64,000 nucleotides of DNA. It comes from Rickettsiales bacterium. GTDB lineage: Bacteria > Pseudomonadota > Alphaproteobacteria > Rickettsiales > UBA3002. The DNA lies in NCBI GenBank assembly GCA_046154225.1, contig JBJXEM010000004.1, forward strand, positions 102 through 64,101. Reading direction: 5' to 3'. The position numbers and the translations under genes are program-made. Numbering within the stretch: the stretch's first letter is position 1; each line of letters starts with the position of its first letter. The notes beneath the pieces were generated by a model. That model had not been told where the DNA came from. It was given only the letters and a program-made list of their open reading frames with translations, and did no database searches. Shown here in pieces: positions 6,828 to 44,244 of this stretch.

Positions 6828-7871
6828 ATGACCCAATCCATCTCCACCGTCATCCTAGGCGCATCGGGCTATACCGGTGCGGAATTGTTGCGGCTGCTGC
6901 GTGGGCACCCGGCGTTTAATATCGTGGCGCTGACGGGCGACAGCCAAGCGGGAAAACCCATCGAGCACGTCTATCCACATTTGCGCGGACAGAATTTGCC
7001 AACCCTCGTGAAGCACACGGAAGTCGACTTTACCGATGTGCAACTCGTGTTCTGCTGCCTGCCGCATGGCACTACGCAGGAGATTATCGCGGGCCTGCCT
7101 GCACATGTGCGCATTGTCGACCTGTCAGCCGATTTCCGGCTGCACGATGTGGCCGAATACGCCGCATGGTATGGCCACGAACACCGCGCGCCCCAGCTTC
7201 AGAATGACGCGGTGTACGGGCTTACTGAATTGAACAGAGAACGGATCAAGGCGTCACGCCTTGTGGCGAACCCTGGCTGTTACCCGACCAGCGTGCTGTT
7301 GCCCTTGGTACCGCTTACGCACGCCAAACTCATTGATCCCACCTGCTTGTTTATTGACTCACAATCCGGCGTCTCAGGCGCGGGCCGTAGCGTGAAGCAG
7401 GAGCTGTTATTCACCGAGCTCGAAGGCGGCGTTTCGGCCTACGGCATCGGCCACCACCGACACATGGCCGAGATGGAACAGGAGTTACGCGCCGCCAGCG
7501 GCGTGGCCGACCTCACCGTGTCGTTTACACCGCATTTGGTGCCCATCACCCGCGGCATGCTCAGCACGATTCATGTACGCCTTAGCGAAGGCGTGAGCGC
7601 CGACGATGCCCGCGCGCACCTGACACAACGCTTCGCGAACGAACCGTTTGTCACTGTCCTCACCACCGGTGCGGCCAGCACCCATCAGGTACGTGGCACC
7701 AACCAATGCGTAATGTCGGCGCATGTCGGGCGCACTGCGCGCGAACTGATACTCGTCTCGGTCATCGACAATCTCGTGAAGGGAGCATCCGGCCAAGCCC
7801 TGCAAAATGCGAATCTGATGTTCGGCTTACCCGAGACCACGAACCTCGAACTCACCGCGATTTTTCCGTGA
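6828..7871 (+). CDS. argC: N-acetyl-gamma-glutamyl-phosphate reductase
   Basis: The sequence contains ILGASGYTGAELLRLL and VANPGCYPT (active-site Cys). ATG 6828 is preceded by AAGAGGA. Confidence 0.9.
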   Translation: MTQSISTVILGASGYTGAELLRLLRGHPAFNIVALTGDSQAGKPIEHVYPHLRGQNLPTLVKHTEVDFTDVQLVFCCLPHGTTQEIIAGLPAHVRIVDLSADFRLHDVAEYAAWYGHEHRAPQLQNDAVYGLTELNRERIKASRLVANPGCYPTSVLLPLVPLTHAKLIDPTCLFIDSQSGVSGAGRSVKQELLFTELEGGVSAYGIGHHRHMAEMEQELRAASGVADLTVSFTPHLVPITRGMLSTIHVRLSEGVSADDARAHLTQRFANEPFVTVLTTGAASTHQVRGTNQCVMSAHVGRTARELILVSVIDNLVKGASGQALQNANLMFGLPETTNLELTAIFP

Positions 7872-7944
7872 GTGGTGAGTCGTGAGTTGTGAGTGGTGAA
7901 GAAATGCGATAATCACTACACACCACACACAACGCACCACTCAC
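7868..7944. repeat. inverted heptanucleotide arrays (H1, unit GTGAGTN)
   Basis: GTGAGTG GTGAGTC GTGAGTT GTGAGTG GTGAAGA faces CACTACA CACCACA CACAACG CACCACT CAC. The outer 10 bp are perfectly complementary and 25 of 31 positions pair overall. The array overlaps the argC stop and abuts the next ATG. Confidence 0.85.
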
Positions 7945-8463
7945 ATGCATCAGCCACTCATCCTCCCCTATCACGGCATTCTGCCCACCATCCATCCGGA
8001 TGCGTGGATCGCGCCGGGCGCGGTGGTGATTGGCGATGTGCATATCGGCGCGTTTTCCAATGTGTGGTTCGGCTGCGTGATTCGCGGTGATGTCAACACC
8101 ATCCGCATCGGCGAACGGACGAATATCCAAGACGGCACTATCGTGCATGTCACCCGTAAAACGGGGCCCACCAGCATCGGTTCCGGCATCACTATCGGCC
8201 ATCAGGCCCTCATTCACGCAGCCACGTTGATGGACGATTGTTTCATCGGCATGGGCGCGACCATCATCGACGGGGTGGTGGTGGAATCCGGCGCTTTTGT
8301 AGCCGCAGGGGCCGTCGTCACCCCCCATAAACGCGTGCCCACGGGCCAAATGTGGGGCGGCAACCCCGCTAAATACATGCGCGACCTGAAGCCCGAGGAA
8401 GCCGCGTTCATCTCCGTCAGCGCCCAGAATTATGTTGATTTATCTAGGGAATATAGGGTATAG
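7945..8463 (+). CDS. gamma-class carbonic anhydrase family protein (hexapeptide-repeat, YrdA/PaaY-like)
   Basis: The sequence reads IHPDAWIAPGAVVIGDVHIG..SNVWFGCVIRGD...IRIGERTNIQDG, a left-handed beta-helix pattern. Confidence 0.85.
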   Translation: MHQPLILPYHGILPTIHPDAWIAPGAVVIGDVHIGAFSNVWFGCVIRGDVNTIRIGERTNIQDGTIVHVTRKTGPTSIGSGITIGHQALIHAATLMDDCFIGMGATIIDGVVVESGAFVAAGAVVTPHKRVPTGQMWGGNPAKYMRDLKPEEAAFISVSAQNYVDLSREYRV

Positions 8464-8563
8464 GGTTTAGGGTATAGGGTATATAGTATAGGGTATTATT
8501 TATATAGTTTGGCCTCAATATAAAGCCATTTCTAAACCCTAAACCCTAAACCCTAACCCCTAT
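8445..8563. repeat. inverted heptanucleotide arrays (H2, unit T(A/T)TAGGG / CCCTAAA)
   Basis: Six units TATAGGG/TTTAGGG lie at 8452-8496. They face TAAACCC x3 plus TAACCCC (8533-8563) across an AT-rich spacer. Confidence 0.85.
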
Positions 8564-21903: not shown

Positions 21904-21997
21904 GTGGTGAGTAGTGGGTAGTGGGTTGTGAAGCACAAAACCTCATGCTAGGCATTCCTCACCATCCACCATCCACCACTCACCACCCACCACTCAC
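21904..21997. repeat. inverted heptanucleotide arrays (H4, unit GTGGTGA / NNCCACC)
   Basis: GTGGTGA GTAGTGG GTAGTGG GTTGTGA (21904-21933) faces CCTCACC ATCCACC ATCCACC ACTCACC ACCCACC ACTCAC (21957-21997). Of 30 positions, 24 are complementary. The array ends at the gpmI ATG. Confidence 0.85.
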
Positions 21998-23515
21998 ATG
22001 AAAAAACCCATCGTTCTTTGCATCCTCGACGGCTGGGGCGAAAGCGCCGAGCAGGCGCACAACGCCATTGCCCAAGCGCGCACGCCGCACTGGGATTCCT
22101 TGCGCGCACGCTGGCCGTTTGGGGTGCTTCACGCCTCGGAATCGCACGTGGGTCTACCTGCCGGGCAAATGGGCAATTCCGAAGTGGGCCACATGAATAT
22201 CGGCGCGGGCCGCATCGTGATGCAGGATTTGCCGCGCATCGACGCGGCCATTGCCGATGGCACCCTCGCCCAGAATGCAGCGCTACTTGATTATATTGCG
22301 GCACTTAAACAATCCGGCGGCACATGCCATTTGCTGGGATTGCTGAGCGACGGCGGCGTGCATTCGCATATCCATCATGTCATGACGCTGGCGAATGTCG
22401 TAGCGGAAGCCGGTGTCGCCGTCGCCATTCACGCCTTCACCGACGGGCGCGACGTGGCCCCAAAATCAGCGCAGCAATTTTTCGAAATGCTGCAGCAAAA
22501 TCTGCACAAAAATGCGCGCATCGTCACCATCAGCGGACGCTATTTCGCCATGGACCGTGACCAGCGTTGGGAGCGTGTCGAGCGGGCATTTCGTGCCATC
22601 GTCTGTCCGTCAGGTGAACATGCCGCAACCGCGCGTGACGCAGTGAACCAAGCCTACGCCGCAAACCTGACAGACGAATTTATCCGCCCCACGGTGATTG
22701 GCGATTATGCAGGTGTCAACACGGGCGACGGTCTGCTGATGGCGAACTTTCGTGCCGACCGCGCGCGGCAATTGCTGCACACGTTGCTCGATGCAACGTT
22801 CGACGGTTTTGCGCGAGAACACGCGCCCAAATGGGCGGCCACGCTGGGACTAGTGGAATACAGCGCGGCGCTCAATCCGCTCATTCCTTCCATGTTCCGA
22901 CCGCAAGCGCTTGCCCATAATCTGGGTGAGTGGGTGGCGCAGCATGGGCTGCAGCAATTGCGCATTGCCGAAACAGAAAAATACGCGCATGTGACGTTCT
23001 TTTTCAATGGTGGGTGCGAGGAGCCGTTCGTGGGTGAATCGCGTATTTTAGTACCGAGCCCGAAAGTCGCGACCTATGATTTGCAGCCGGAAATGAGTGC
23101 GCCGGAAGTGACGGATAAACTTGTCGCGGCCATTGCATCCGGCCAGTTCGATTTCATCGTGGTGAATTACGCCAACACCGACATGGTGGGCCATAGCGGC
23201 GATTTAGCGGCGGCGATGCAAGCGGTCGAGGCAGTGGATGCGTGCCTAGGGCGTGTGAGCGACGCAGTGCTGAACGCAGGCGGCGCCATGCTGATTACCG
23301 CCGACCATGGCAACGCCGAATGCCTGCACGACGACGATTCCGGTCAGGCGCATACGGCGCACACGCTGAACCCTGTGCCGTGCGTTTTGGTCGGCGTCGA
23401 TGGGCCGAAAAGCCTGCGTACCGGCATTCTGGCCGATATCGCGCCGACTTTGTGCCAGTTGCTGCACATCACCCCGCCGCCGGAAATGACCGGCAAAAGC
23501 CTGCGCGATGCGTAA
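21998..23515 (+). CDS. gpmI: 2,3-bisphosphoglycerate-independent phosphoglycerate mutase
   Basis: The sequence contains ILDGWG, NSEVGHMNIGAGR and ADHGNAE. Confidence 0.95.
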   Translation: MKKPIVLCILDGWGESAEQAHNAIAQARTPHWDSLRARWPFGVLHASESHVGLPAGQMGNSEVGHMNIGAGRIVMQDLPRIDAAIADGTLAQNAALLDYIAALKQSGGTCHLLGLLSDGGVHSHIHHVMTLANVVAEAGVAVAIHAFTDGRDVAPKSAQQFFEMLQQNLHKNARIVTISGRYFAMDRDQRWERVERAFRAIVCPSGEHAATARDAVNQAYAANLTDEFIRPTVIGDYAGVNTGDGLLMANFRADRARQLLHTLLDATFDGFAREHAPKWAATLGLVEYSAALNPLIPSMFRPQALAHNLGEWVAQHGLQQLRIAETEKYAHVTFFFNGGCEEPFVGESRILVPSPKVATYDLQPEMSAPEVTDKLVAAIASGQFDFIVVNYANTDMVGHSGDLAAAMQAVEAVDACLGRVSDAVLNAGGAMLITADHGNAECLHDDDSGQAHTAHTLNPVPCVLVGVDGPKSLRTGILADIAPTLCQLLHITPPPEMTGKSLRDA

Positions 23516-26155: not shown

Positions 26156-27499
26156 ATGGTGCGGCTCCCCCACCTGCCAGCACTTCGCACACAAGGGCCT
26201 TGGCTTTGGCTGGGCTTGTGTGTGCTGTTGACGCTTGGACTCCTGAGCACCGTGATGGACCTCGCCGCCGTGCCCAACACCGAAACGCGACGCGCCAATG
26301 CCAGTGAACAGCGTGTGATTATCGACCCCGCCACGGGGGTGGTAGCCGGGCTGAGCGAGGGTGACACCCCCGGACCCGAGCAGCCGTTTGACGTGGTACC
26401 TGACGTTCCGGGCGAACCGCCCGAACCCAACGCCGAAACGCCTGCCGAGGCAACACCGCCCGAAGCTACGCCGGAAGCCAGCGGTCTGCCGGAAGGCCTG
26501 CCGCTGCTTCGCAGTACAGCACCCGCTAGCGCTTCTGCCACCATTGCCCGCGACCGCAACAGCCTGATCAGCGCCCCCGCACCGGAGGTCACGGAAAAAC
26601 TCGCCGACGGCAGCAAACTACCCAAACGCGGCGATACCGATGCGACGCCCCTCTCGATTTATTCGCAGCCTTTCGTACGCAAACCCGAACAGCAGCGAGT
26701 CGCGATTGTGATACTCGATGCGGGACTCAATGCCAGCAGCCTGCCCCTGCTCACCAGCCTGCCCCGGCAGGTCAGCGTTGCGGTCTCGCCCTACACCCGC
26801 CACGCCGACGCGGTGATTACCCAACTGCGCAACCGTGGCCAGGAAACCTGGGCCATGCTGCCCGTCATGACCGAACGCTACCCCGAAGCCGATCCGGGCC
26901 CATTGGGCCTCATCGCCAACATGCCGCGCGACGAGCAATTGCGCCGCCTGCGCGCGGCCATGAGCGCCACGCTCGGCAGCGTCGGTTTCGTGCTACCGAT
27001 GGATGAAAGCTACAGCCTGAAAAAAGAGGCCTTCGCCGCCACGCTGAAGGAAATCGACGCGCGGGGCATGGTGGTGCTGAGCACGAACGCAAGCCGCAGC
27101 GTCGAGCAACTCACGGCTGATAAAAACCTGCAATCCGTCATTCGCCGCGCCGATTTAGTGATCGACGCCACACCGAACGAAGCGGTGATTCGCAGCACGC
27201 TCGCGGGGTTGGCCGCCACCATCAAAGGTAAAAGCGACACGATTATTCTGGCCAGCGCCCGCCCGCAAACGCTGCTGATTCTCGATGAATGGCTGCAGCA
27301 AAACAGCTTAGCCCCCGCCGAACTGGCACCGCTGAGCGCCATTTACCTGCCCGACCCGGTGCCGGTGGAAGCCCCGGCCGAAAGCGGTGGCCATGGCGAA
27401 GCGCCCGCGCACGGGGCCGAAGCCGCCAAAGACGCCAAACCCGAAGCCCCTAAAGCAGCCGAAAAAGCCGAAAAACCGGCCGCTGCCGGGCACCATTAA
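26156..27499 (+). CDS. divergent polysaccharide deacetylase family protein (YibQ-like) with Pro-rich N-terminal region
   Basis: The central region VAIVILDAGLN...VSVAVSPYT.. matches the YibQ pattern. Its position after ctpA is conserved in alphaproteobacteria. Confidence 0.7.
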   Translation: MVRLPHLPALRTQGPWLWLGLCVLLTLGLLSTVMDLAAVPNTETRRANASEQRVIIDPATGVVAGLSEGDTPGPEQPFDVVPDVPGEPPEPNAETPAEATPPEATPEASGLPEGLPLLRSTAPASASATIARDRNSLISAPAPEVTEKLADGSKLPKRGDTDATPLSIYSQPFVRKPEQQRVAIVILDAGLNASSLPLLTSLPRQVSVAVSPYTRHADAVITQLRNRGQETWAMLPVMTERYPEADPGPLGLIANMPRDEQLRRLRAAMSATLGSVGFVLPMDESYSLKKEAFAATLKEIDARGMVVLSTNASRSVEQLTADKNLQSVIRRADLVIDATPNEAVIRSTLAGLAATIKGKSDTIILASARPQTLLILDEWLQQNSLAPAELAPLSAIYLPDPVPVEAPAESGGHGEAPAHGAEAAKDAKPEAPKAAEKAEKPAAAGHH

Positions 27500-27984
27500 T
27501 GGGCCAGTTTTCGCACCTGCCCTTCCGCCGCGGCGTGGGTATCATGCTGTTTAACACAGAAGGCAAAGTGTTCGCGGCCAAGCGGCTCGACATGATTTCC
27601 GACGCCTGGCAAATGCCGCAAGGCGGTATCGACGACGACGAGCCGCCACGGGCGGCAGCGTTACGTGAATTACAGGAAGAAACCGGCATTCCAGCCGAAA
27701 GCGTCAGTTTCCTCGCCGAATATCCCGGCTGGCTGGATTACGATTTGCCGGATGACTTGCAGCCCCTCATCTGGAAAGGCAAGTTCCGCGGCCAGACGCA
27801 AAAATGGTTCGCCCTGCGCCTGAACGGCGGCGACGCCCTCATCAACATCAACGCCTACGAAACCCCCGAATTTTCGGAATGGAAATGGGTCGACATCCAC
27901 GCATTGCCCGACCTCATCGTCCCCTTCAAACGCGCGCTGTATGCGAAGCTGGTGGCAGAGTTTGTTGATTGTGCCAATGGCTGA
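27499..27984 (+). CDS. rppH: RNA pyrophosphohydrolase (NUDIX)
   Basis: The sequence contains YRRGVGIMLFN, WQMPQGGID and the Nudix box AALRELQEETGI. Confidence 0.88.
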   Translation: MGQFSHLPFRRGVGIMLFNTEGKVFAAKRLDMISDAWQMPQGGIDDDEPPRAAALRELQEETGIPAESVSFLAEYPGWLDYDLPDDLQPLIWKGKFRGQTQKWFALRLNGGDALININAYETPEFSEWKWVDIHALPDLIVPFKRALYAKLVAEFVDCANG

Positions 27985-28009
27985 GTTATGCTAGCATTCT
28001 TACCTATGA

Positions 28010-28846
28010 GCCGACACCCGACACCCGATACCCGACACCCGCCTCGGCTTTAGCCTCGTCGAACTCTCCATTGTTTTGGTCATTCTTGGCCTGCTGACGG
28101 GCGGCATCCTCGCCGGCCAGTCGCTCATCCGCGCGGCACAACTACGATCTGTCAGTACAGAGTATTCACGTTATTACACTGCCACACAGACCTTCCGCGA
28201 TAAATACATGGCCCTTCCTGGAGATATGACAAACGCTACGAAGTTTTGGGGGTTACAAGCTGGGTGTGCTGGTAACTGCCTTACGGTTCCATCAGGTACC
28301 GAGACATTCGACGGGAATGGCGACGGCACGATTCAGTGCATAGGTTGCGATTTAAGCACTACTGGTAATGAAACCTATCGTTTTTGGCAGCAACTTGCGA
28401 ATGCGGGGCTTATTGAGGGCCAATATACAGGCGTACCTGCCGCCGCCCCGGCTTTACCAGAATGGGGGTGGGCATCAAAACTTGGTGTCAATGTCCCAAC
28501 AAGTCGCTTCTCCAACTCGGGATGGAGCATTTTTTGGATCGCCCCCAAGGATATCTCTGATGTTAATTGGTTTGAAGGTGATTACGGTAATATGATGATT
28601 TTTGGTGGTGCGGACAGTACTGGACTGACATGGGTTCCGATGCTTACTCCTGAAGATGCATGGAACATCGATACCAAGTTAGATGATGGAAAGCCTGCAA
28701 CTGGCCGGGTCGTGACCAATGAAAATCAAGGAGGCCAGTGTAGTGATTTAGCGGCCTCTGCTGCTGCATCGCTTGCCGCATCACAATATAAACTGACCAA
28801 TGCTACTATCAGCTGCACACTCGTAATGAAAAGTTCCGCAAATTAA
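28010..28846 (+). CDS. type IV pilin / T2SS pseudopilin-like protein (prepilin N-terminal methylation motif); no in-frame canonical start as sequenced
   Basis: G|FSLVELSIVLVILGLLTGGILAGQSLI at 28046 onward is the class III signal and hydrophobic helix. The only ATGs (27988 and 28006) are in another frame and terminate at TAG 28051-53. GC is lower than in neighbouring genes. Confidence 0.7.
   Translation, partial: ADTRHPIPDTRLGFSLVELSIVLVILGLLTGGILAGQSLIRAAQLRSVSTEYSRYYTATQTFRDKYMALPGDMTNATKFWGLQAGCAGNCLTVPSGTETFDGNGDGTIQCIGCDLSTTGNETYRFWQQLANAGLIEGQYTGVPAAAPALPEWGWASKLGVNVPTSRFSNSGWSIFWIAPKDISDVNWFEGDYGNMMIFGGADSTGLTWVPMLTPEDAWNIDTKLDDGKPATGRVVTNENQGGQCSDLAASAAASLAASQYKLTNATISCTLVMKSSAN
28011..28045 (+). 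repeat. heptanucleotide tandem array (H5, CCGACAC x2, CCGATAC, CCGACAC, degenerate CCGCCTC) inside the pilin leader region
   Basis: Read directly from the sequence. It lies between ATG 28006 and the GFSLVE motif. Confidence 0.85.
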
Positions 28847-28938
28847 AATGCGTATCGTCAAAATGCGATTTCTACAGCCGAAGAATTGAACGTTAACGGC
28901 TCTGGCCCTACGCCCGAATCATCGTGCTTATGGTACTT

Positions 28939-29292
28939 TGTCATCCCGGCGCATGCCGGGATCCGCGCCCCATTAAATTATTTGCTCGTAGAGGTCGACC
29001 CAGTCCGGATTCATCCGGCAGATGGCCTGATATTTGATCGCACGACTCCACCGTTTAATGAGTTTTTCACGGCGTATTGCTTCGGTGATATCGGCATGCA
29101 CTTCGTAATAGACGAGGGTTTTGATACCGTATTTCTTGGTGAAACCTTGAACCAGCCCCTGTTTATGCTCATAGACACGACGCACTAAGTCATTCGTCAC
29201 GCCCACATAGAACGTGCCGTTGCGGCCTGTCGTTAAGATATAAACATAGTAGTTCATTTCAGGCGCGGGCCCCGGCATGCGCCGGGGTGACA
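28939..29292 (-). mobile_element. GIY-YIG cassette 2: nuclease ORF between hairpin-forming terminal inverted repeats
   Basis: TGTCATCCCGGCGCATGCCGGG (28939-28960) matches the reverse complement of 29271-29292 (TGTCACCCCGGCGCATGCCGGG) at 21 of 22 positions. Confidence 0.6.
28973..29257 (-). CDS. GIY-YIG nuclease family protein (second copy)
   Basis: MNYYVYILTTGRNGTFYVGVTNDL..R..EHK...FTKKY...LVYYE...AIRREK.IKRW. By hand alignment, 53 of 92 residues are identical to the copy at 194-481. Confidence 0.85.
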   Translation of the reverse strand: MNYYVYILTTGRNGTFYVGVTNDLVRRVYEHKQGLVQGFTKKYGIKTLVYYEVHADITEAIRREKLIKRWSRAIKYQAICRMNPDWVDLYEQII

Positions 29293-29337
29293 GTTGGTGT
29301 TACAACGACAAACGCATGCTCTTTTTCTTTGGCGCAG

Positions 29338-29361
29338 ACCCCGGCATCCGCCGGGGTGACA
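29338..29361. repeat. solo hairpin of the cassette-2 type
   Basis: ACCCCGGCATCCGCCGGGGTGACA, about 45 bp beyond the right end of cassette 2. Confidence 0.7.
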
Positions 29362-29380
29362 TTTTCTTTTTCAACTAACC

Positions 29381-30286
29381 TTAAGCCCGAATCATCGTGC
29401 TCGCGCCGTGTTCGGTGAAGGTTTCAATGAGCAATACATGAGGGATGCGGCCGTCGAGGATGTGGGCTTGGCTCACGCCTGCTTTCAGGGCATGCACGCA
29501 GGTTTCGACCTTGGGGATCATACCGCCGGTGATGGTGCCGTCGGCAAGCAGCGCGTCGATTTCCGCCGCATCAATCGCGCTGATGAGTTGTTTGTCTTTG
29601 GTTAAAATCCCCGCCACGTCGGTCAGCATCATCAGCTTGGTCGCACCCAATGCGCTCGCGATGGCGCCGGCGGCGGTGTCGGCGTTGATATTATAAGTTT
29701 CGCCGTTCGGGCCCATGCCGATAGGGGCGATGACGGGGATCATGCCGCTCGCCATAATGTTTTGAATCGCCGCGGGGTTGATTTTGGTGGGCTCGCCCAC
29801 GAAGCCTAAATCAAGCACACGCTCGATGTTGCTGTCGGGGTCCTTCTTGGTGCGGCGTAATTGCTGCGCCTCGATGAGGTTGCCGTCCTTGCCGGAAATA
29901 CCAATCGCGGTGCCACCCATTTGGTTGATGGCGGTGACGATTTGTTTGTTGATGCTGCCAGATAATACCATCTCAACAATGTCGACCGCTTCTTCATCCG
30001 TCACGCGCAGTCCGTCGATAAATTCGGATTTGATTTTCAGCCGCTCGAGCATCGCGCCGATTTGCGGTCCGCCACCATGAACCACCACCGGGTTGATGCC
30101 CACGGTTTTTAAAATCACGATGTCGCGCGCGAAAGTTTCCGCCGTGCGGTCATTCCCCATGGCGTTGCCGCCGTATTTGATGACGAACGTGTGGCCCGCA
30201 AACCGCTGGATATAGGGCAGCGCTTCGCTCACCGTTTTGGCGGTGCGCAGTAGCAGTTCCTTGGTTTTTATTGTCTTTATTTCCAT
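29381..30286 (-). CDS. argB: acetylglutamate kinase
   Basis: The sequence contains ALPYIQRF.GHTFVIKYGGNAM and VVHGGGPQI. Confidence 0.95.
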   Translation of the reverse strand: MEIKTIKTKELLLRTAKTVSEALPYIQRFAGHTFVIKYGGNAMGNDRTAETFARDIVILKTVGINPVVVHGGGPQIGAMLERLKIKSEFIDGLRVTDEEAVDIVEMVLSGSINKQIVTAINQMGGTAIGISGKDGNLIEAQQLRRTKKDPDSNIERVLDLGFVGEPTKINPAAIQNIMASGMIPVIAPIGMGPNGETYNINADTAAGAIASALGATKLMMLTDVAGILTKDKQLISAIDAAEIDALLADGTITGGMIPKVETCVHALKAGVSQAHILDGRIPHVLLIETFTEHGASTMIRA

Positions 30287-30292
30287 GAGGGT

Positions 30293-30362
30293 AGCCTACA
30301 GCTTACAGCCCACAGCTTACAGCTTAGCACAAGGGTGCTGTTGGCTGTCGGCTGTTGGCTAC
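30293..30362. repeat. inverted heptanucleotide arrays (H6, unit AGCYTAC / NGGCTGT)
   Basis: AGCCTAC AGCTTAC AGCCCAC AGCTTAC AGCTTAG CAC, then aagg, then GTGCTGT TGGCTGT CGGCTGT TGGCTAC. It overlaps the engB stop and ends 6 nt from the argB start. Confidence 0.8.
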
Positions 30363-37488: not shown

Positions 37489-39453
37489 TTACTTTTTCGG
37501 GAAAATGGGGCGCGGGTCGGTACTGTATTTTTGATAGATTGCACGGTCAACCGCTGTGGCGCTGCCATCGGGATTGACGATGGTGGCTTTGATGAACACA
37601 ATCAGCTCCGACTTACGGGAGTTTTCACTGCGGGCTTTGAACAAATTGCCAAATATTGGCGCTTCGGAAAGGCCGGGAACTCCGTCGTCCTGATTGCGGC
37701 TGGTATCTTCCATCAGGCCACCGATGACCATCACGCCGCCCGAACGTACCTTCATCACGGAATCAAGCTCGCGTACTTCAATCACCGGCACCGTAATATC
37801 GGGGATGGTAATGTTCGAAGTGGCTGCTGAGTTGGCAATCAGCGAGCGGATATAACCCGTTTCAGGATTGACCGCCGTGTCGACCTGGCGGGTAAGCGTA
37901 GGCCGCACACTTAAAGTAATCTCCTGCGTGTCGAGATTCACCGACGGCAGGATACTCAGAATAATGCCGATCGGCACCGTGTTCTGGTTACAGTCCACTG
38001 TCGGTTGCGTATCCACAGTGCTGTTGCCGCCCGTACCTACACTTTGCTGCGTGGGCGGTGTGGCGGTACAGTTAAAGAATACCACGTTACGGGCAAAAGT
38101 GAGTACTGCCTGCTGGTTATTAATGGCCGACAAACGCGGGCTGGACAGGGTGCGGGTAGTGCCAAAGCGTTGGGTGAGCGACAGCACGGCATCGAGATCG
38201 CCGCCTTCGAGGCCGAACGAGATGGCGTTGCTCGAGTCCGATCCGCCATTAATCCCGGTGGCGCTAAGCGCCAGTGTTTCAAGGCCAAGCGGCTGGAAAT
38301 TGCCCAAACGCAAACGGTTTCCGCCGACGTCGCCGATCAGTTTGGACCAGTTGATGCCCGACAAAAACTGGTCCGATAGCGCCACCTCAACAATTTTTGC
38401 TTCAATCAACACTTGCGCCGAGGAGTTGCGGCTCATCAACGACAGGAAGCGCTTGATCATTTCATGCTGGCGCTCGGTAGCGTTCACCGACAAAACACCC
38501 GCCTGACGGTTGATGACGAGGCCTGAAGACGCACCGCCTGCCCCCGCCGCACCTGCTGCACCTACTGCGCCTGTAGCACCAACCGCGGCTGCAGCAGGCG
38601 CACCCGCTGCCCCTGACGCGCTCGCAGTAGCAGCGCCGCCGGTTTGGGCCAGAATTTCGCTCACCGATGCTTCAAGGGACGACCACAAGTCGCTCTCTGC
38701 TTGGCTCGTGATATTGCTGCTCGAGTTGGAGGTTCCCACCCCGCCGCCACCGCCGCCACCTGCAGCTCCACCAGCCGCACCGCCGCCACCAGCCGCACCG
38801 CCGCCAGCAGCTGCGCCGCCACCGCCGCCACCACCACCGCCACCACCGCCCGACAGAATCCCGGTCTGGAGCGAGTAGGTTGAGGTGCTGGAGCGCACCA
38901 GATTCAGAAAGTCGAGCGAGTAGTTTTTAATATAGGGGGTGTCGCGCTCAACACGGATGGAATCGCCCTTCACGCTGTAGCGCAAACCGCCGAGATCGGC
39001 GATGCGCTCAATCACTTCGTTGAATGGCTGGTCCGTCGCGCGCAGATTGATGCCGGTTTTATCGAGCCCACTGCCAACCTCAATGTCTACCTTGGCCAAA
39101 CGGCCCAGCTCGAACAGCACATCGCGCAAGGGCACATCTTCGGTTACAGCGAGGGTGACGAGTTTGGCATTTGCAACCTTCGGCGGTCGCGGGGCGGCGA
39201 GGACTTGGGCCAGATCTGGCAGCGGCGGGGCGCCCAATACGGCGGTGGTTTTTACCGGCGCTTTTTCGTCGAGCAGTTTATCGGCGTTGTTCAGGTCACG
39301 GAAATCATCGGTGGTGAGGCCCTGTTGGCGGTCGATGACGTCACTTTTGGCATCTTTTTTCGGCACGAACGAGTCGAAAAATGAACAGGACGAAAGCGCC
39401 AAGGCGGCCACAGTCAGGACCATCATTTTCCCAACGTTCAGCGTCCGTCGCAT
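37489..39453 (-). CDS. secretin-family lipoprotein (MshL/PilQ-like) with internal Gly/Ala low-complexity tract
   Basis: It has the lipobox LALSSC. The C-terminal secretin domain reads VRSGGVMVIGGLMED...GVPGLSEAPIFGNLFK...ELIVFIKATIV. Confidence 0.85.
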   Translation of the reverse strand: MRRTLNVGKMMVLTVAALALSSCSFFDSFVPKKDAKSDVIDRQQGLTTDDFRDLNNADKLLDEKAPVKTTAVLGAPPLPDLAQVLAAPRPPKVANAKLVTLAVTEDVPLRDVLFELGRLAKVDIEVGSGLDKTGINLRATDQPFNEVIERIADLGGLRYSVKGDSIRVERDTPYIKNYSLDFLNLVRSSTSTYSLQTGILSGGGGGGGGGGGGAAAGGGAAGGGGAAGGAAGGGGGGGVGTSNSSSNITSQAESDLWSSLEASVSEILAQTGGAATASASGAAGAPAAAAVGATGAVGAAGAAGAGGASSGLVINRQAGVLSVNATERQHEMIKRFLSLMSRNSSAQVLIEAKIVEVALSDQFLSGINWSKLIGDVGGNRLRLGNFQPLGLETLALSATGINGGSDSSNAISFGLEGGDLDAVLSLTQRFGTTRTLSSPRLSAINNQQAVLTFARNVVFFNCTATPPTQQSVGTGGNSTVDTQPTVDCNQNTVPIGIILSILPSVNLDTQEITLSVRPTLTRQVDTAVNPETGYIRSLIANSAATSNITIPDITVPVIEVRELDSVMKVRSGGVMVIGGLMEDTSRNQDDGVPGLSEAPIFGNLFKARSENSRKSELIVFIKATIVNPDGSATAVDRAIYQKYSTDPRPIFPKK

Positions 39454-39564: not shown

Positions 39565-40347
39565 TTAACGCAACAGCCCATAAAGTTGCCAAAATCCTGC
39601 CGCAGTTTGTGGCGACACTACGCATAACAGGAGCGACGCGGCGAGTGCCGGACCGAACGGGAATCGTGCATTGTCGGTGAGCCGTTGCCACACCGTTCCA
39701 AAAACAATGCCCATGAGCCCGGAATAAAACAGGAACGGAATAAAATTTGCCGCACTGGCCAGCCAGACACCAGCGACAAAGAGAAATTTTACATCGCCGA
39801 GCCCCAGCCCGTCCTTGTTGCGTAAGTACAAAAAGCCATATTTTAACGTCAGCCCAATCGCCGCTCCAGCGCATGCGGCTATCGCCGCGTCGGCCGCATC
39901 CACATTGCGTGCATATCCATACAAAACACCAAACACGCCGATGCTGATTTGCACCTCGTCGAGGATGATGTAATTCTCGAGGTCGGTCACGGTGAGCGCC
40001 ACGATCGACCACCATAACCCGGCGATAGCAAGCGCTTCCAGCGTCGGGCCATAATGGATGACGACGAATAGGCCACCCAGCGCGCAGGCCAACTCCGTCA
40101 GCGGATAACGGGCACTCACTTTTACCTGGCAATGCCGGCAACGACCGCGGGCAAGCACCCACGACAGCACCGGAAATAAATCGCGTACGCCCAGTGTGGT
40201 GAAGCAGGCCGGGCAGCGCGACCGCGTCATGCCCACCGGCTCGTCGCGCGGCAGGCGGTAAGTAATCAAGGTGATGAACGAGCCAATCGCGGCCCCCACG
40301 ATCGTCACCAACCCATAGAGCAGCGGCGTCGGCATTTGCTGCAACAT
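39565..40347 (-). CDS. pilD: prepilin peptidase (A24 family)
   Basis: It has the CPxC...CxxC zinc motif (CPACFT...CRHCQ) and a polytopic layout with conserved Asp regions (LGLGDVKF). Confidence 0.88.
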   Translation of the reverse strand: MLQQMPTPLLYGLVTIVGAAIGSFITLITYRLPRDEPVGMTRSRCPACFTTLGVRDLFPVLSWVLARGRCRHCQVKVSARYPLTELACALGGLFVVIHYGPTLEALAIAGLWWSIVALTVTDLENYIILDEVQISIGVFGVLYGYARNVDAADAAIAACAGAAIGLTLKYGFLYLRNKDGLGLGDVKFLFVAGVWLASAANFIPFLFYSGLMGIVFGTVWQRLTDNARFPFGPALAASLLLCVVSPQTAAGFWQLYGLLR

Positions 40348-43128: not shown

Positions 43129-44244
43129 ATGACCCAGACAACCGACCATCGCTTCCTTCTCCACGCGCAACGCATGGCCAGCCGCGGCCTTGGCCGCACA
43201 TGGCCCAATCCATCGGTCGGCTGCGTGCTAGTGAAAAACGGAGTGGTGATTGCCGTCGCCCACACGGCGGACGGCGGCCGCCCCCATGCGGAAACGCAGA
43301 CGCTCGCACTCGCGGGCGATGCGGCACGCGGGGCCACGGCTTATGTCACGCTTGAACCCTGCGCCCATCACGGCCACACCCCGCCTTGCGCGCAGGCGCT
43401 GATTGATGCAGGTGTGACGCGGGTCGTGTTTGGGTACGAGGACCCCGACCTGCGTGTTAACGGTCGCGGCGCGGCGATGCTAAAAGCAGCGGGTGTGGAA
43501 ACTACACCACCCACCACCCACCACTCACCACTCACATCTCTCTATCGCGGTTTCTTCCGCCGCGTGCGCCATGGCTTGCCGGAAGTGTCGCTGAAAATCG
43601 CGACCTCGCGCGATAACCATATTGCCGACCCTGCTGGAGTGCATCGCTGGCTGACCGGCGAACAAGCGCGCGCCCATGGGCACATGCTGCGTGCCACGCA
43701 TGATGCGGTGGTCACCGGCATCGGCACCGTGCTCGCTGACGACCCGCTTTACACCGTGCGGTTACTGGGCATCACGCGCCCCAACCTCATACGCGTTGTC
43801 GTCGATCGCAATCTGCAACTGCCGCTACATTGCCAACTCGTGCGCACGGCGGAACAACATCCGCTCTGGTTGCTCACCACCGCCGAGGCGGTGGAGCACA
43901 ACGCCAGCCACGCCACCGAACTTCGCGAACGCGGCGTGGTGCTCCAGGTGGTGGAAACCTTGGCTGACCCGCGCGCCATCCTCACCTTACTCGCAGCACA
44001 AGGCCTCAACCGTGTGCTGGTTGAAGCCGGGGCAGCACTCACGGCGGCATTCATGGGGGCGCGCTGTGTCGACACGCTGCATTGGTACCGCGCGCCGATG
44101 CGTTTTGGAAATACTGGCCAAGCCGCGCCGATTGCACTAGATACGGCGCTGCAAGCGGTTCAGCCTTTGGGTTTGGTGCATCACCAGCCCCTCGGCTCCG
44201 ATATGTATGAACGTTACGAGTTAAAATCATGTTTACCGGACTAA
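43129..44244 (+). CDS. ribD: bifunctional diaminohydroxyphosphoribosylaminopyrimidine deaminase / 5-amino-6-(5-phosphoribosylamino)uracil reductase
   Basis: It has the deaminase zinc motifs HAE and PCxxxxxxPPC (TLEPCAHHGHTPPC), followed by a reductase domain. Confidence 0.92.
   Translation: MTQTTDHRFLLHAQRMASRGLGRTWPNPSVGCVLVKNGVVIAVAHTADGGRPHAETQTLALAGDAARGATAYVTLEPCAHHGHTPPCAQALIDAGVTRVVFGYEDPDLRVNGRGAAMLKAAGVETTPPTTHHSPLTSLYRGFFRRVRHGLPEVSLKIATSRDNHIADPAGVHRWLTGEQARAHGHMLRATHDAVVTGIGTVLADDPLYTVRLLGITRPNLIRVVVDRNLQLPLHCQLVRTAEQHPLWLLTTAEAVEHNASHATELRERGVVLQVVETLADPRAILTLLAAQGLNRVLVEAGAALTAAFMGARCVDTLHWYRAPMRFGNTGQAAPIALDTALQAVQPLGLVHHQPLGSDMYERYELKSCLPD
43505..43535 (+). repeat. heptanucleotide array (H8, CACCACC x2, CACCACT x2) inside the ribD coding sequence
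   Basis: It belongs to the same unit family as the right arm of H4. It is translated in frame as TPPTTHHSPLT. Confidence 0.75.

Follow-up and report, generated by a model that had tools for sequence, protein, structure and literature searches.

A heptamer repeat array in the leader region of an out-of-frame pilin-like gene from a Rickettsiales bacterium

Does a short heptamer array, lying between the first ATG of a pilin-like gene and its prepilin motif, switch the gene on and off, or has it recently broken the gene? The question is raised by a 64-kb stretch of contig JBJXEM010000004.1 (the window, to which all coordinates refer) from Rickettsiales bacterium GCA_046154225.1, a metagenome-assembled genome (MAG) from a biofilter metagenome. 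An earlier note on this DNA had described the gene as OFF in its sequenced state and had proposed that slipped-strand changes in the number of repeat units turn it ON. Here, we compare the locus with its gene family, with the other repeat arrays of the genome and with further samples of the same biofilter study.

Reading frames at the start of the gene

Four features define the frames at the 5' end of the gene. In protein sequences, a slash marks the prepilin cleavage site.

28006 to 28053, plus strand: probable original start, ATG 28006, with its 15-codon frame MSRHPTPDTRHPPRL, ending at TAG 28051-28053
28011 to 28041, no strand assigned: heptamer array (CCGACAC)4.4, 31 nt long, with four whole units at 28011-28038 (28 nt), the third of which is CCGATAC
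28028 to 28030, plus strand: ATA codon that the variant unit CCGATAC introduces into the pilin frame; the public gene call P0002 starts here
28046 to 28846, plus strand: pilin-like coding frame from Gly-1/Phe+1 to the stop codon, with a class III signal motif and a mature part of 266 residues

The sequence of this region is as the earlier note had claimed. ATG 28006-28008 is followed by AGC and then by CCGACAC, CCGACAC, CCGATAC, CCGACAC and CCG(CCTC), and the frame opened by this ATG stops at TAG 28051-28053. The prepilin motif RLG/FSLVELSIVLVILGLL, with GGC TTT AGC from position 28046, is in the +1 frame relative to ATG 28006. This pilin frame is closed upstream by TGA 28007-28009, and between that TGA and the prepilin motif it contains no ATG, GTG or TTG. 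Its first ordinary start codon is TTG 28076, located past the motif and inside the hydrophobic helix, which confirms that no ordinary start lies ahead of the helix. The sole candidate for a start codon of a leader peptide is ATA 28028, and it is from this codon that the public gene call P0002 (MPDTRLG/FSLVEL, 272 aa) was made. From 28046 to 28846 the pilin frame is fully open, and it aligns end to end with its relatives. Its GC3 is 0.46 versus approximately 0.7 in the neighboring genes.

The length of the repeat unit is not divisible by 3, and the array is placed so that the number of units sets the reading frame, as in a contingency locus. With 0, 3 or 6 units, ATG 28006 is in frame with the pilin; zero units would give MSRLG/F, and three units would give MSRHPTPDTRLG/F or MSRHPIPDTRLG/F. 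With 1, 4 or 7 units, translation stops at the TAG codon, and 2 or 5 units lead into the third frame. Four units are observed. The statement that one unit fewer or two units more would restore the frame is thus borne out by this arithmetic. Judged from its sequence, the allele is OFF when it is read from the start codon that is backed by promoter evidence (see below). The verdict that the gene is OFF as sequenced stands in that no prepilin is encoded from an ordinary start codon, and it needs qualification in that the public gene call uses ATA 28028. A noncanonical start inside the tract, which the earlier note had named as fatal to the switch, is indeed used by that call; this is a choice of annotation and not evidence of initiation.

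The array, its repeat family and its number of units

With Tandem Repeats Finder, the array at 28011-28041 was scored as period 7, 4.4 copies, 91% matches and a score of 55. Period 7 is kept perfectly over 18 nt (2.6 units) at most. Thus, with the third unit being a variant, the array is not the long perfect tract that supports a high slippage rate.

The array belongs to the genome's own family of heptamer repeats, which resembles the short tandemly repeated repetitive (STRR) sequences of cyanobacteria; the earlier note was right to draw the tract from such a family. The 64-kb window holds approximately 15 period-7 arrays, many of them approximately 31 nt long. Like STRR sequences, they have few units, are dispersed in many copies, are mostly intergenic and in several cases are arranged as inverted pairs, and some directly adjoin start codons. 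Further arrays of approximately 31 nt are located at 7914-7944, 8532-8562 and 43505-43535. Allowing 2 mismatches at most, the window contains seven occurrences of the double unit (a 14-mer), versus 0.53 expected from shuffled sequences, and period 7 is the only enriched period among those from 5 to 12. For the array studied here, no second arm in inverted orientation was found within 200 nt; it is a single arm and was therefore rejected as half of a hairpin element. No Rfam family matched the array region, and the C/A-rich RNA around the array is without special structure (folding z-score, 0.08).

Arrays of (CCGACAC)n are not peculiar to this genome. They were found in Planctomycetota, Acidobacteriota, Chloroflexota, cyanobacteria, actinomycetes and others, mostly at lengths of 23 to 32 nt and in a few cases up to 139 nt. 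The variant CCGATAC recurs in such arrays of unrelated phyla, near the array ends. In the biofilter runs, a cyclic 37-nt contig of perfect (CCGACAC)n is present at 28-121x; because the identical array occurs in many phyla, this contig derives from other loci and organisms.

Some arrays of the window adjoin or enter other genes. An array pair abuts the start of argB (30293-30360), and the closest relative, whose ArgB is 94% identical, has an array at the same place (L205:3914-3945). The two share the unit family, and the array measures 32 nt in the relative versus 34 nt in the window. The loci of 19 other relatives contain no arrays. We also observed that the decamer CACCACTCAC terminates arrays directly before ATG 7945 (7935-7947) and ATG 21998 (21988-22000), and that within ribD it terminates an in-frame array directly before ATC 43536 (43526-43538).

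The number of units was followed in five biofilter runs of one study (X1 to X5), examined as Logan contigs. Run X5 is without the organism, so that four samples remained. In run X2, an independent contig (k = 31) spans positions 27119-28120 with 0 differences and 0 gaps and has the same four units. As it comes from another sample and another assembler, the unit count is not an artifact of the MAG assembly, and the check for an assembly error that the earlier note had called for came out in favor of the published sequence. In run X1, the boundary between two contigs (approximately 8x) falls exactly on base 28010, immediately ahead of the array, and the 29 bridging 31-mers are missing. We do not read this break as heterogeneity; simple variants in unit number would leave the graph unbroken there. 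In runs X3 and X4, the left edge of the array falls into contig gaps, which are common elsewhere too at a depth of approximately 3-8x.

No 7-bp insertion or deletion in the array was detected in the Logan contigs of the four samples, among which one contig spans the tract; these contigs drop rare variants, and a minority in-frame allele could escape them. In contigs of the same samples, the arrays at 7868-7944 and 30293-30360 also had no change in unit number. Exact-pattern scans revealed no other allele in metagenome contigs (two scans, one of which allowed 0-30 nt between the flanks) or in genome contigs (one scan), and none of the collections yielded a closely related strain. The locus was found in no RNA run.

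The pilin-like family, its neighborhood and its start sites

The protein has the hallmarks of a type IV prepilin: Gly/Ala at -1, Phe at +1, Glu at +5 and a hydrophobic helix of approximately 20 residues. Its score against TIGR02532 is 21.4 bits (cut-off, 16.3), and that against PF07963 is 19.4 bits, slightly below the cut-off of 21.2. The AlphaFold2 model (pLDDT 91.8) has an N-terminal helix at residues 10-60 and an alpha/beta globular head. A family profile search revealed no solved structure related by sequence; by fold, the best matches in the PDB were pilins, Clostridioides difficile PilA1 and CofA, without significance (E of approximately 1).

The family is large, with more than 5,000 matches and a best identity of 59%. 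It consists of prepilin-type proteins of approximately 265 residues from uncultured Rickettsiales and Micavibrio-like alphaproteobacteria. For comparison, we used 117 family genes in the 80 best loci of the larger match list; among these 80, each of three MAGs contributes at least nine loci. The pilin keeps 29 of 29 invariant family residues, a set that, by construction of the alignment summary, includes the query's own. The commonest family leader has four residues, M-x-x-[GA] (45/119 proteins; e.g., MRLG/F and MSRG/F). Longer leaders are tolerated, up to 16 residues in many members and up to 86 in the longest gene calls. All complete genes (approximately 115 of the 117) have an ordinary in-frame start, ATG, GTG or TTG.

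The comparison of repeat number among orthologues, which the earlier note had recommended, gave no support for a switch. No period-7 array or other simple repeat is present in the leader of any of the relatives' 117 family genes, and the tract does not recur in the L203 pilin, which occupies the same genomic site (see below). Without its four whole units (28 nt), the window gene would read ATG AGC CGC CTC GGC, that is, MSRLG/FSLVEL, and without the 31-nt array it would read MSLG/FSLVEL. The flanks alone thus give a normal gene start, which points to the array as extra sequence.

Insertions of other kinds were noted near the starts of related genes. In five of them (L128, L133, L148, L182 and L194), palindromic repeats of the hairpin type are located upstream of or inside the leader region, approximately 100 nt before the motif, and the nearest in-frame start is 20-40 codons upstream. 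In the L203 pilin (L203:1085-1230), the cleavage motif is doubled within a single frame (..NQRAFSLVE PKRSGVPAQAGIHLQRA/FSLVELSIV), and a small GC-rich palindrome separates the two copies. The appearance of this doubled motif suggests the remnant of an earlier 5' end or a small insertion with duplication. With the palindromic repeats in the 5' regions of relatives and the leader relic of L203, the start of these genes seems prone to small insertions.

The surroundings of the gene are described by the following features.

27499 to 27984, plus strand: rppH (NUDIX hydrolase), the upstream neighbor, whose stop codon is 21 nt before ATG 28006
27989 to 27997, plus strand: extended -10-like promoter box TGcTAGCAT with the hexamer TAGCAT at 27992-27997, read from the sequence
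37489 to 39453, minus strand: secretin with a long Gly/Ala-rich tract (5.6e-30)
39565 to 40347, minus strand: prepilin peptidase of the PilD type (A24_N_bact, 9.7e-27; Peptidase_A24, 1.3e-10)

A cognate prepilin peptidase is thus encoded in the window (ORF 39565-40347). The peptidase and the secretin, which the earlier note had placed about 10 kb away, are both present at a distance of 9-12 kb. No gene for an assembly ATPase or a platform protein was seen near the secretin. The gene order ctpA-pda-rppH, followed by convergent argB-engB, is conserved in relatives. Most of them hold just 5-45 nt at the junction between rppH and argB, and in the window the same junction (27985-29380) holds the pilin gene and a GIY-YIG cassette. 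In L203, a pilin of the same family, 48% identical, is located at this site. Insertions recur at the convergent rppH-argB junction: L206, L207 and L210 have different inserts there, 0.5-1 kb in length. In the window, the 17-nt sequence GCCCGAATCATCGTGCT, corresponding to the plus-strand reading of the argB 3' end, is present in two copies, at 28912-28928 and 29387-29403. The first copy is 66 nt past the pilin stop codon and the second is the real argB end, so that the two copies bracket the GIY-YIG cassette.

The predicted promoter is TGcTAGCAT, the hexamer of which ends 8 nt before ATG 28006. In the relatives, TANNNT, frequently with extended TGn, ends 6, 7 and 8 nt before the ATG in 24, 8 and 5 genes, respectively (37/104), versus approximately 2 per position elsewhere. 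Shine-Dalgarno-like motifs were found in only 18 of the 104 family genes. Among ordinary genes of the window, a box at such spacing precedes only 3 of 39. The 14-nt sequence TATGCTAGCATTCT is identical before the window pilin and the L203 pilin, which share the rppH-argB site. GGAG, GAGG or AGGA within 16 nt of the start is present in only 5 of 39 confident window genes, and the organism seems to rely little on Shine-Dalgarno pairing. A -10 box 6-8 nt before the start codon is the layout expected of leaderless or near-leaderless transcripts, and the comparison adds evidence that many genes of this huge pilin-like family have it. Because the -10 spacing is typical of the family and the same box is conserved in L203, we infer that translation genuinely begins at ATG 28006, on an mRNA that has a very short leader at most.

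Explanations for the out-of-frame gene and comparison with known systems

We lean, by a little, toward a recent null (broken) copy within a large pilin-like family. Transcription would start from the extended -10 box TGcTAGCAT, with the 5' end of the mRNA at or just before ATG 28006, and MSRLG or MSLG probably served as the original leader. An array of heptamers, 28-31 nt long, would have arisen or landed right after ATGAG, inside codon 2, and its four units would have added 28 nt and shifted the frame by +1. Translation begun at ATG 28006 would then yield a 15-residue peptide and end at TAG 28051-28053, and no prepilin would be made. The remainder of the gene has no other defect, which suggests a recent event. 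With many copies of such genes (at least nine loci in a single MAG), the loss of one should cost little. That the array was gained rather than lost is suggested by comparison with the family rather than with a true array-free orthologue. The frame could be restored by a 7-bp deletion between two 11-nt direct repeats or by a gain of two units, which would be expected at the ordinary low rate of short-repeat slippage and not as a selected high-frequency switch. The intact frame of 266 codons speaks against a broken copy, since it could mean that the gene is still used, either via ATA 28028 or through occasional in-frame variants. One rival explanation is a true contingency locus, in which the array would slip by whole units at high frequency and the pilin would alternate between OFF (4 units) and ON (3 or 6 units), providing surface diversity, for instance against phage or for the recognition of prey or partners, as in neuO and opa. 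We consider this unlikely, though not far-fetched. A reversible switch is possible because alleles of 0, 3 or 6 units keep the frame, and the repeat, with a unit that is not a multiple of 3, is located in the cleaved leader of a surface-fiber gene, between start codon and processing site. Moreover, the gene is otherwise intact, the family leaders tolerate extra length, and the arithmetic is that of neuO, where ON alleles are those with a multiple of three heptamers (PMC13001214). However, the perfect run is just 18 nt (2.6 units), versus 3-53 units, mostly approximately 20, in neuO (PMC13001214). No length variant was detected in the contigs of four samples, in which the arrays at 7868-7944 and 30293-30360 were likewise without insertion or deletion, and the array upstream of argB is similar in the closest relative (32 versus 34 nt). 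None of the relatives' 117 family genes has a leader repeat. Arrays of the same kind adjoin or sit inside housekeeping genes, an association that was used to argue against phase variation for the Xanthomonas and Nostoc heptamers (Rehm et al. 2015, PMC4692102). The slipped-strand phase switch proposed in the earlier note is therefore unsupported: its tract is short and imperfect, the contigs show no variants, the two other arrays followed through them keep their number of units, and the leaders of relatives are free of repeats.

In three further explanations, the pilin would be made from the array as it stands, or the array would have been misread. The gene would be ON if translation started at the near-cognate ATA 28028 inside the array, giving the leader MPDTRLG/F; we hold this to be quite unlikely. 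The codon is in frame, six codons before Gly-1, the resulting seven-residue leader has an ordinary length, and the surrounding RNA is without special structure (z = 0.08). The missing Shine-Dalgarno sequence is a weak objection, because the genome rarely uses one (5/39 genes). Nevertheless, the approximately 115 complete family genes of the relatives all start with ATG, GTG or TTG. Leaderless translation depends strongly on a 5'-terminal AUG, and with the 5' end set at ATG 28006 by the conserved -10 box, ribosomes would load that AUG, which is in the wrong frame. In favor of an ATA start, AUA can initiate translation, at 1-2% of the AUG level in vivo in Escherichia coli and at a level comparable to AUG in one in vitro system (PMC5499595). 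Against it, the T of the ATA is a common repeat variant in unrelated phyla and thus not a locus-specific repair; the recurrence of CCGATAC in other phyla weakened the codon as a candidate compensatory mutation. In addition, among 84 single substitutions of array bases, 4 would by chance yield a near-cognate start codon. We regard the public gene call at ATA 28028 as less likely than a start at ATG 28006; if the gene is a broken copy, that call stands corrected. It is very improbable that the unit count is an error of assembly or sequencing and that the real gene has three units. The MAG depth of approximately 3-8x, the X1 contig break at 28010 and the gaps over the left edge of the array in X3 and X4 could be taken as signs of such an error, but the X2 contig runs through 27119-28120 without a difference or a gap, reads are much longer than a 31-nt array, and contig gaps are common elsewhere at such depth. 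The count is also unambiguous because the third unit is a variant. Programmed recoding, in which ribosomes would pass from the ATG frame into the pilin frame by a +1 frameshift or a bypass, is scarcely credible. The ATG frame ends with CTT TAG C and so resembles the +1 shift site of prfB, CUU UGA C. However, CTT TAG is present because of the conserved codons GGC TTT AGC (Gly, Phe and Ser), and the product of a shift at CUU-UAG, ...PPRL-SLVEL, would be missing Gly-1 and Phe+1 and with them the cleavage site; we rejected a +1 frameshift at this site for that reason. There is also no upstream Shine-Dalgarno-like stimulator and no such arrangement in relatives.

If the gene is merely a broken copy, the locus provides a before-and-after picture of an STRR-like array in a gene, with 28-31 nt added right after the start codon. 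If it were a switch, slipped-strand contingency loci would extend from host-adapted pathogens to free-living or predatory environmental alphaproteobacteria and would be linked to a genome-wide process that generates repeats. It is doubtful in a high degree that an uncultured, possibly predatory alphaproteobacterium runs a set of switchable pilins toggled by slippage of leader repeats, and equally so that its genome-wide array-making process feeds new switches, with this locus as the first OFF pilin with a heptamer leader.

Among known systems, type IV pilins and pseudopilins (TIGR02532 and PF07963) share with the protein the G/FSLVE motif with Glu+5, the hydrophobic N-terminal helix and the globular head, and, as in type IV pilin systems, PilD and a secretin are encoded in the same window. 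Unlike usual type IV pilins, its mature part of approximately 266 residues is twice the usual size. In Neisseria, the opa (CTCTT) and pilC (poly-G) tracts lie in regions coding for signal peptides. As in opa and pilC, the repeat is located in the cleaved-leader part of a surface or pilus gene, and changes in its length alter the frame but not the mature protein. Switching is proven for the opa and pilC tracts, which are long and perfect and are conserved among strains, whereas the array in the window is short, imperfect and absent from the leaders of relatives. The neuO gene of the E. coli K1 prophage CUS-3 has 3-53 units of the heptanucleotide AAGACTC in its 5' coding region (PMC13001214). 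As in neuO, a 7-nt unit follows soon after the start codon, and a full-length protein results only when the number of units is divisible by 3. For neuO, the units are perfect and mixed populations were measured; here, there are four imperfect units, with no variation observed in contigs. Also unlike neuO, the tract is not conserved in relatives, and its repeat belongs to a genome-wide family.

Dispersed heptamer arrays are known as STRR sequences in cyanobacteria, as GGGAATC in Xanthomonas and as GGGGA(C/T)T in Nostoc (Rehm et al. 2015, PMC4692102), and TAACTGA heptamer repeats were described in Beggiatoaceae (PMC4679880). The arrays of the window are like those of the STRR type: they have period 7 and few units, occur in many dispersed copies that are mostly intergenic and often form inverted pairs, and have no particular tie to surface genes. 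Unlike usual arrays of this type, the copy studied here is located inside a coding region and out of frame, and its boundaries can be defined against the normal leader of the gene family.
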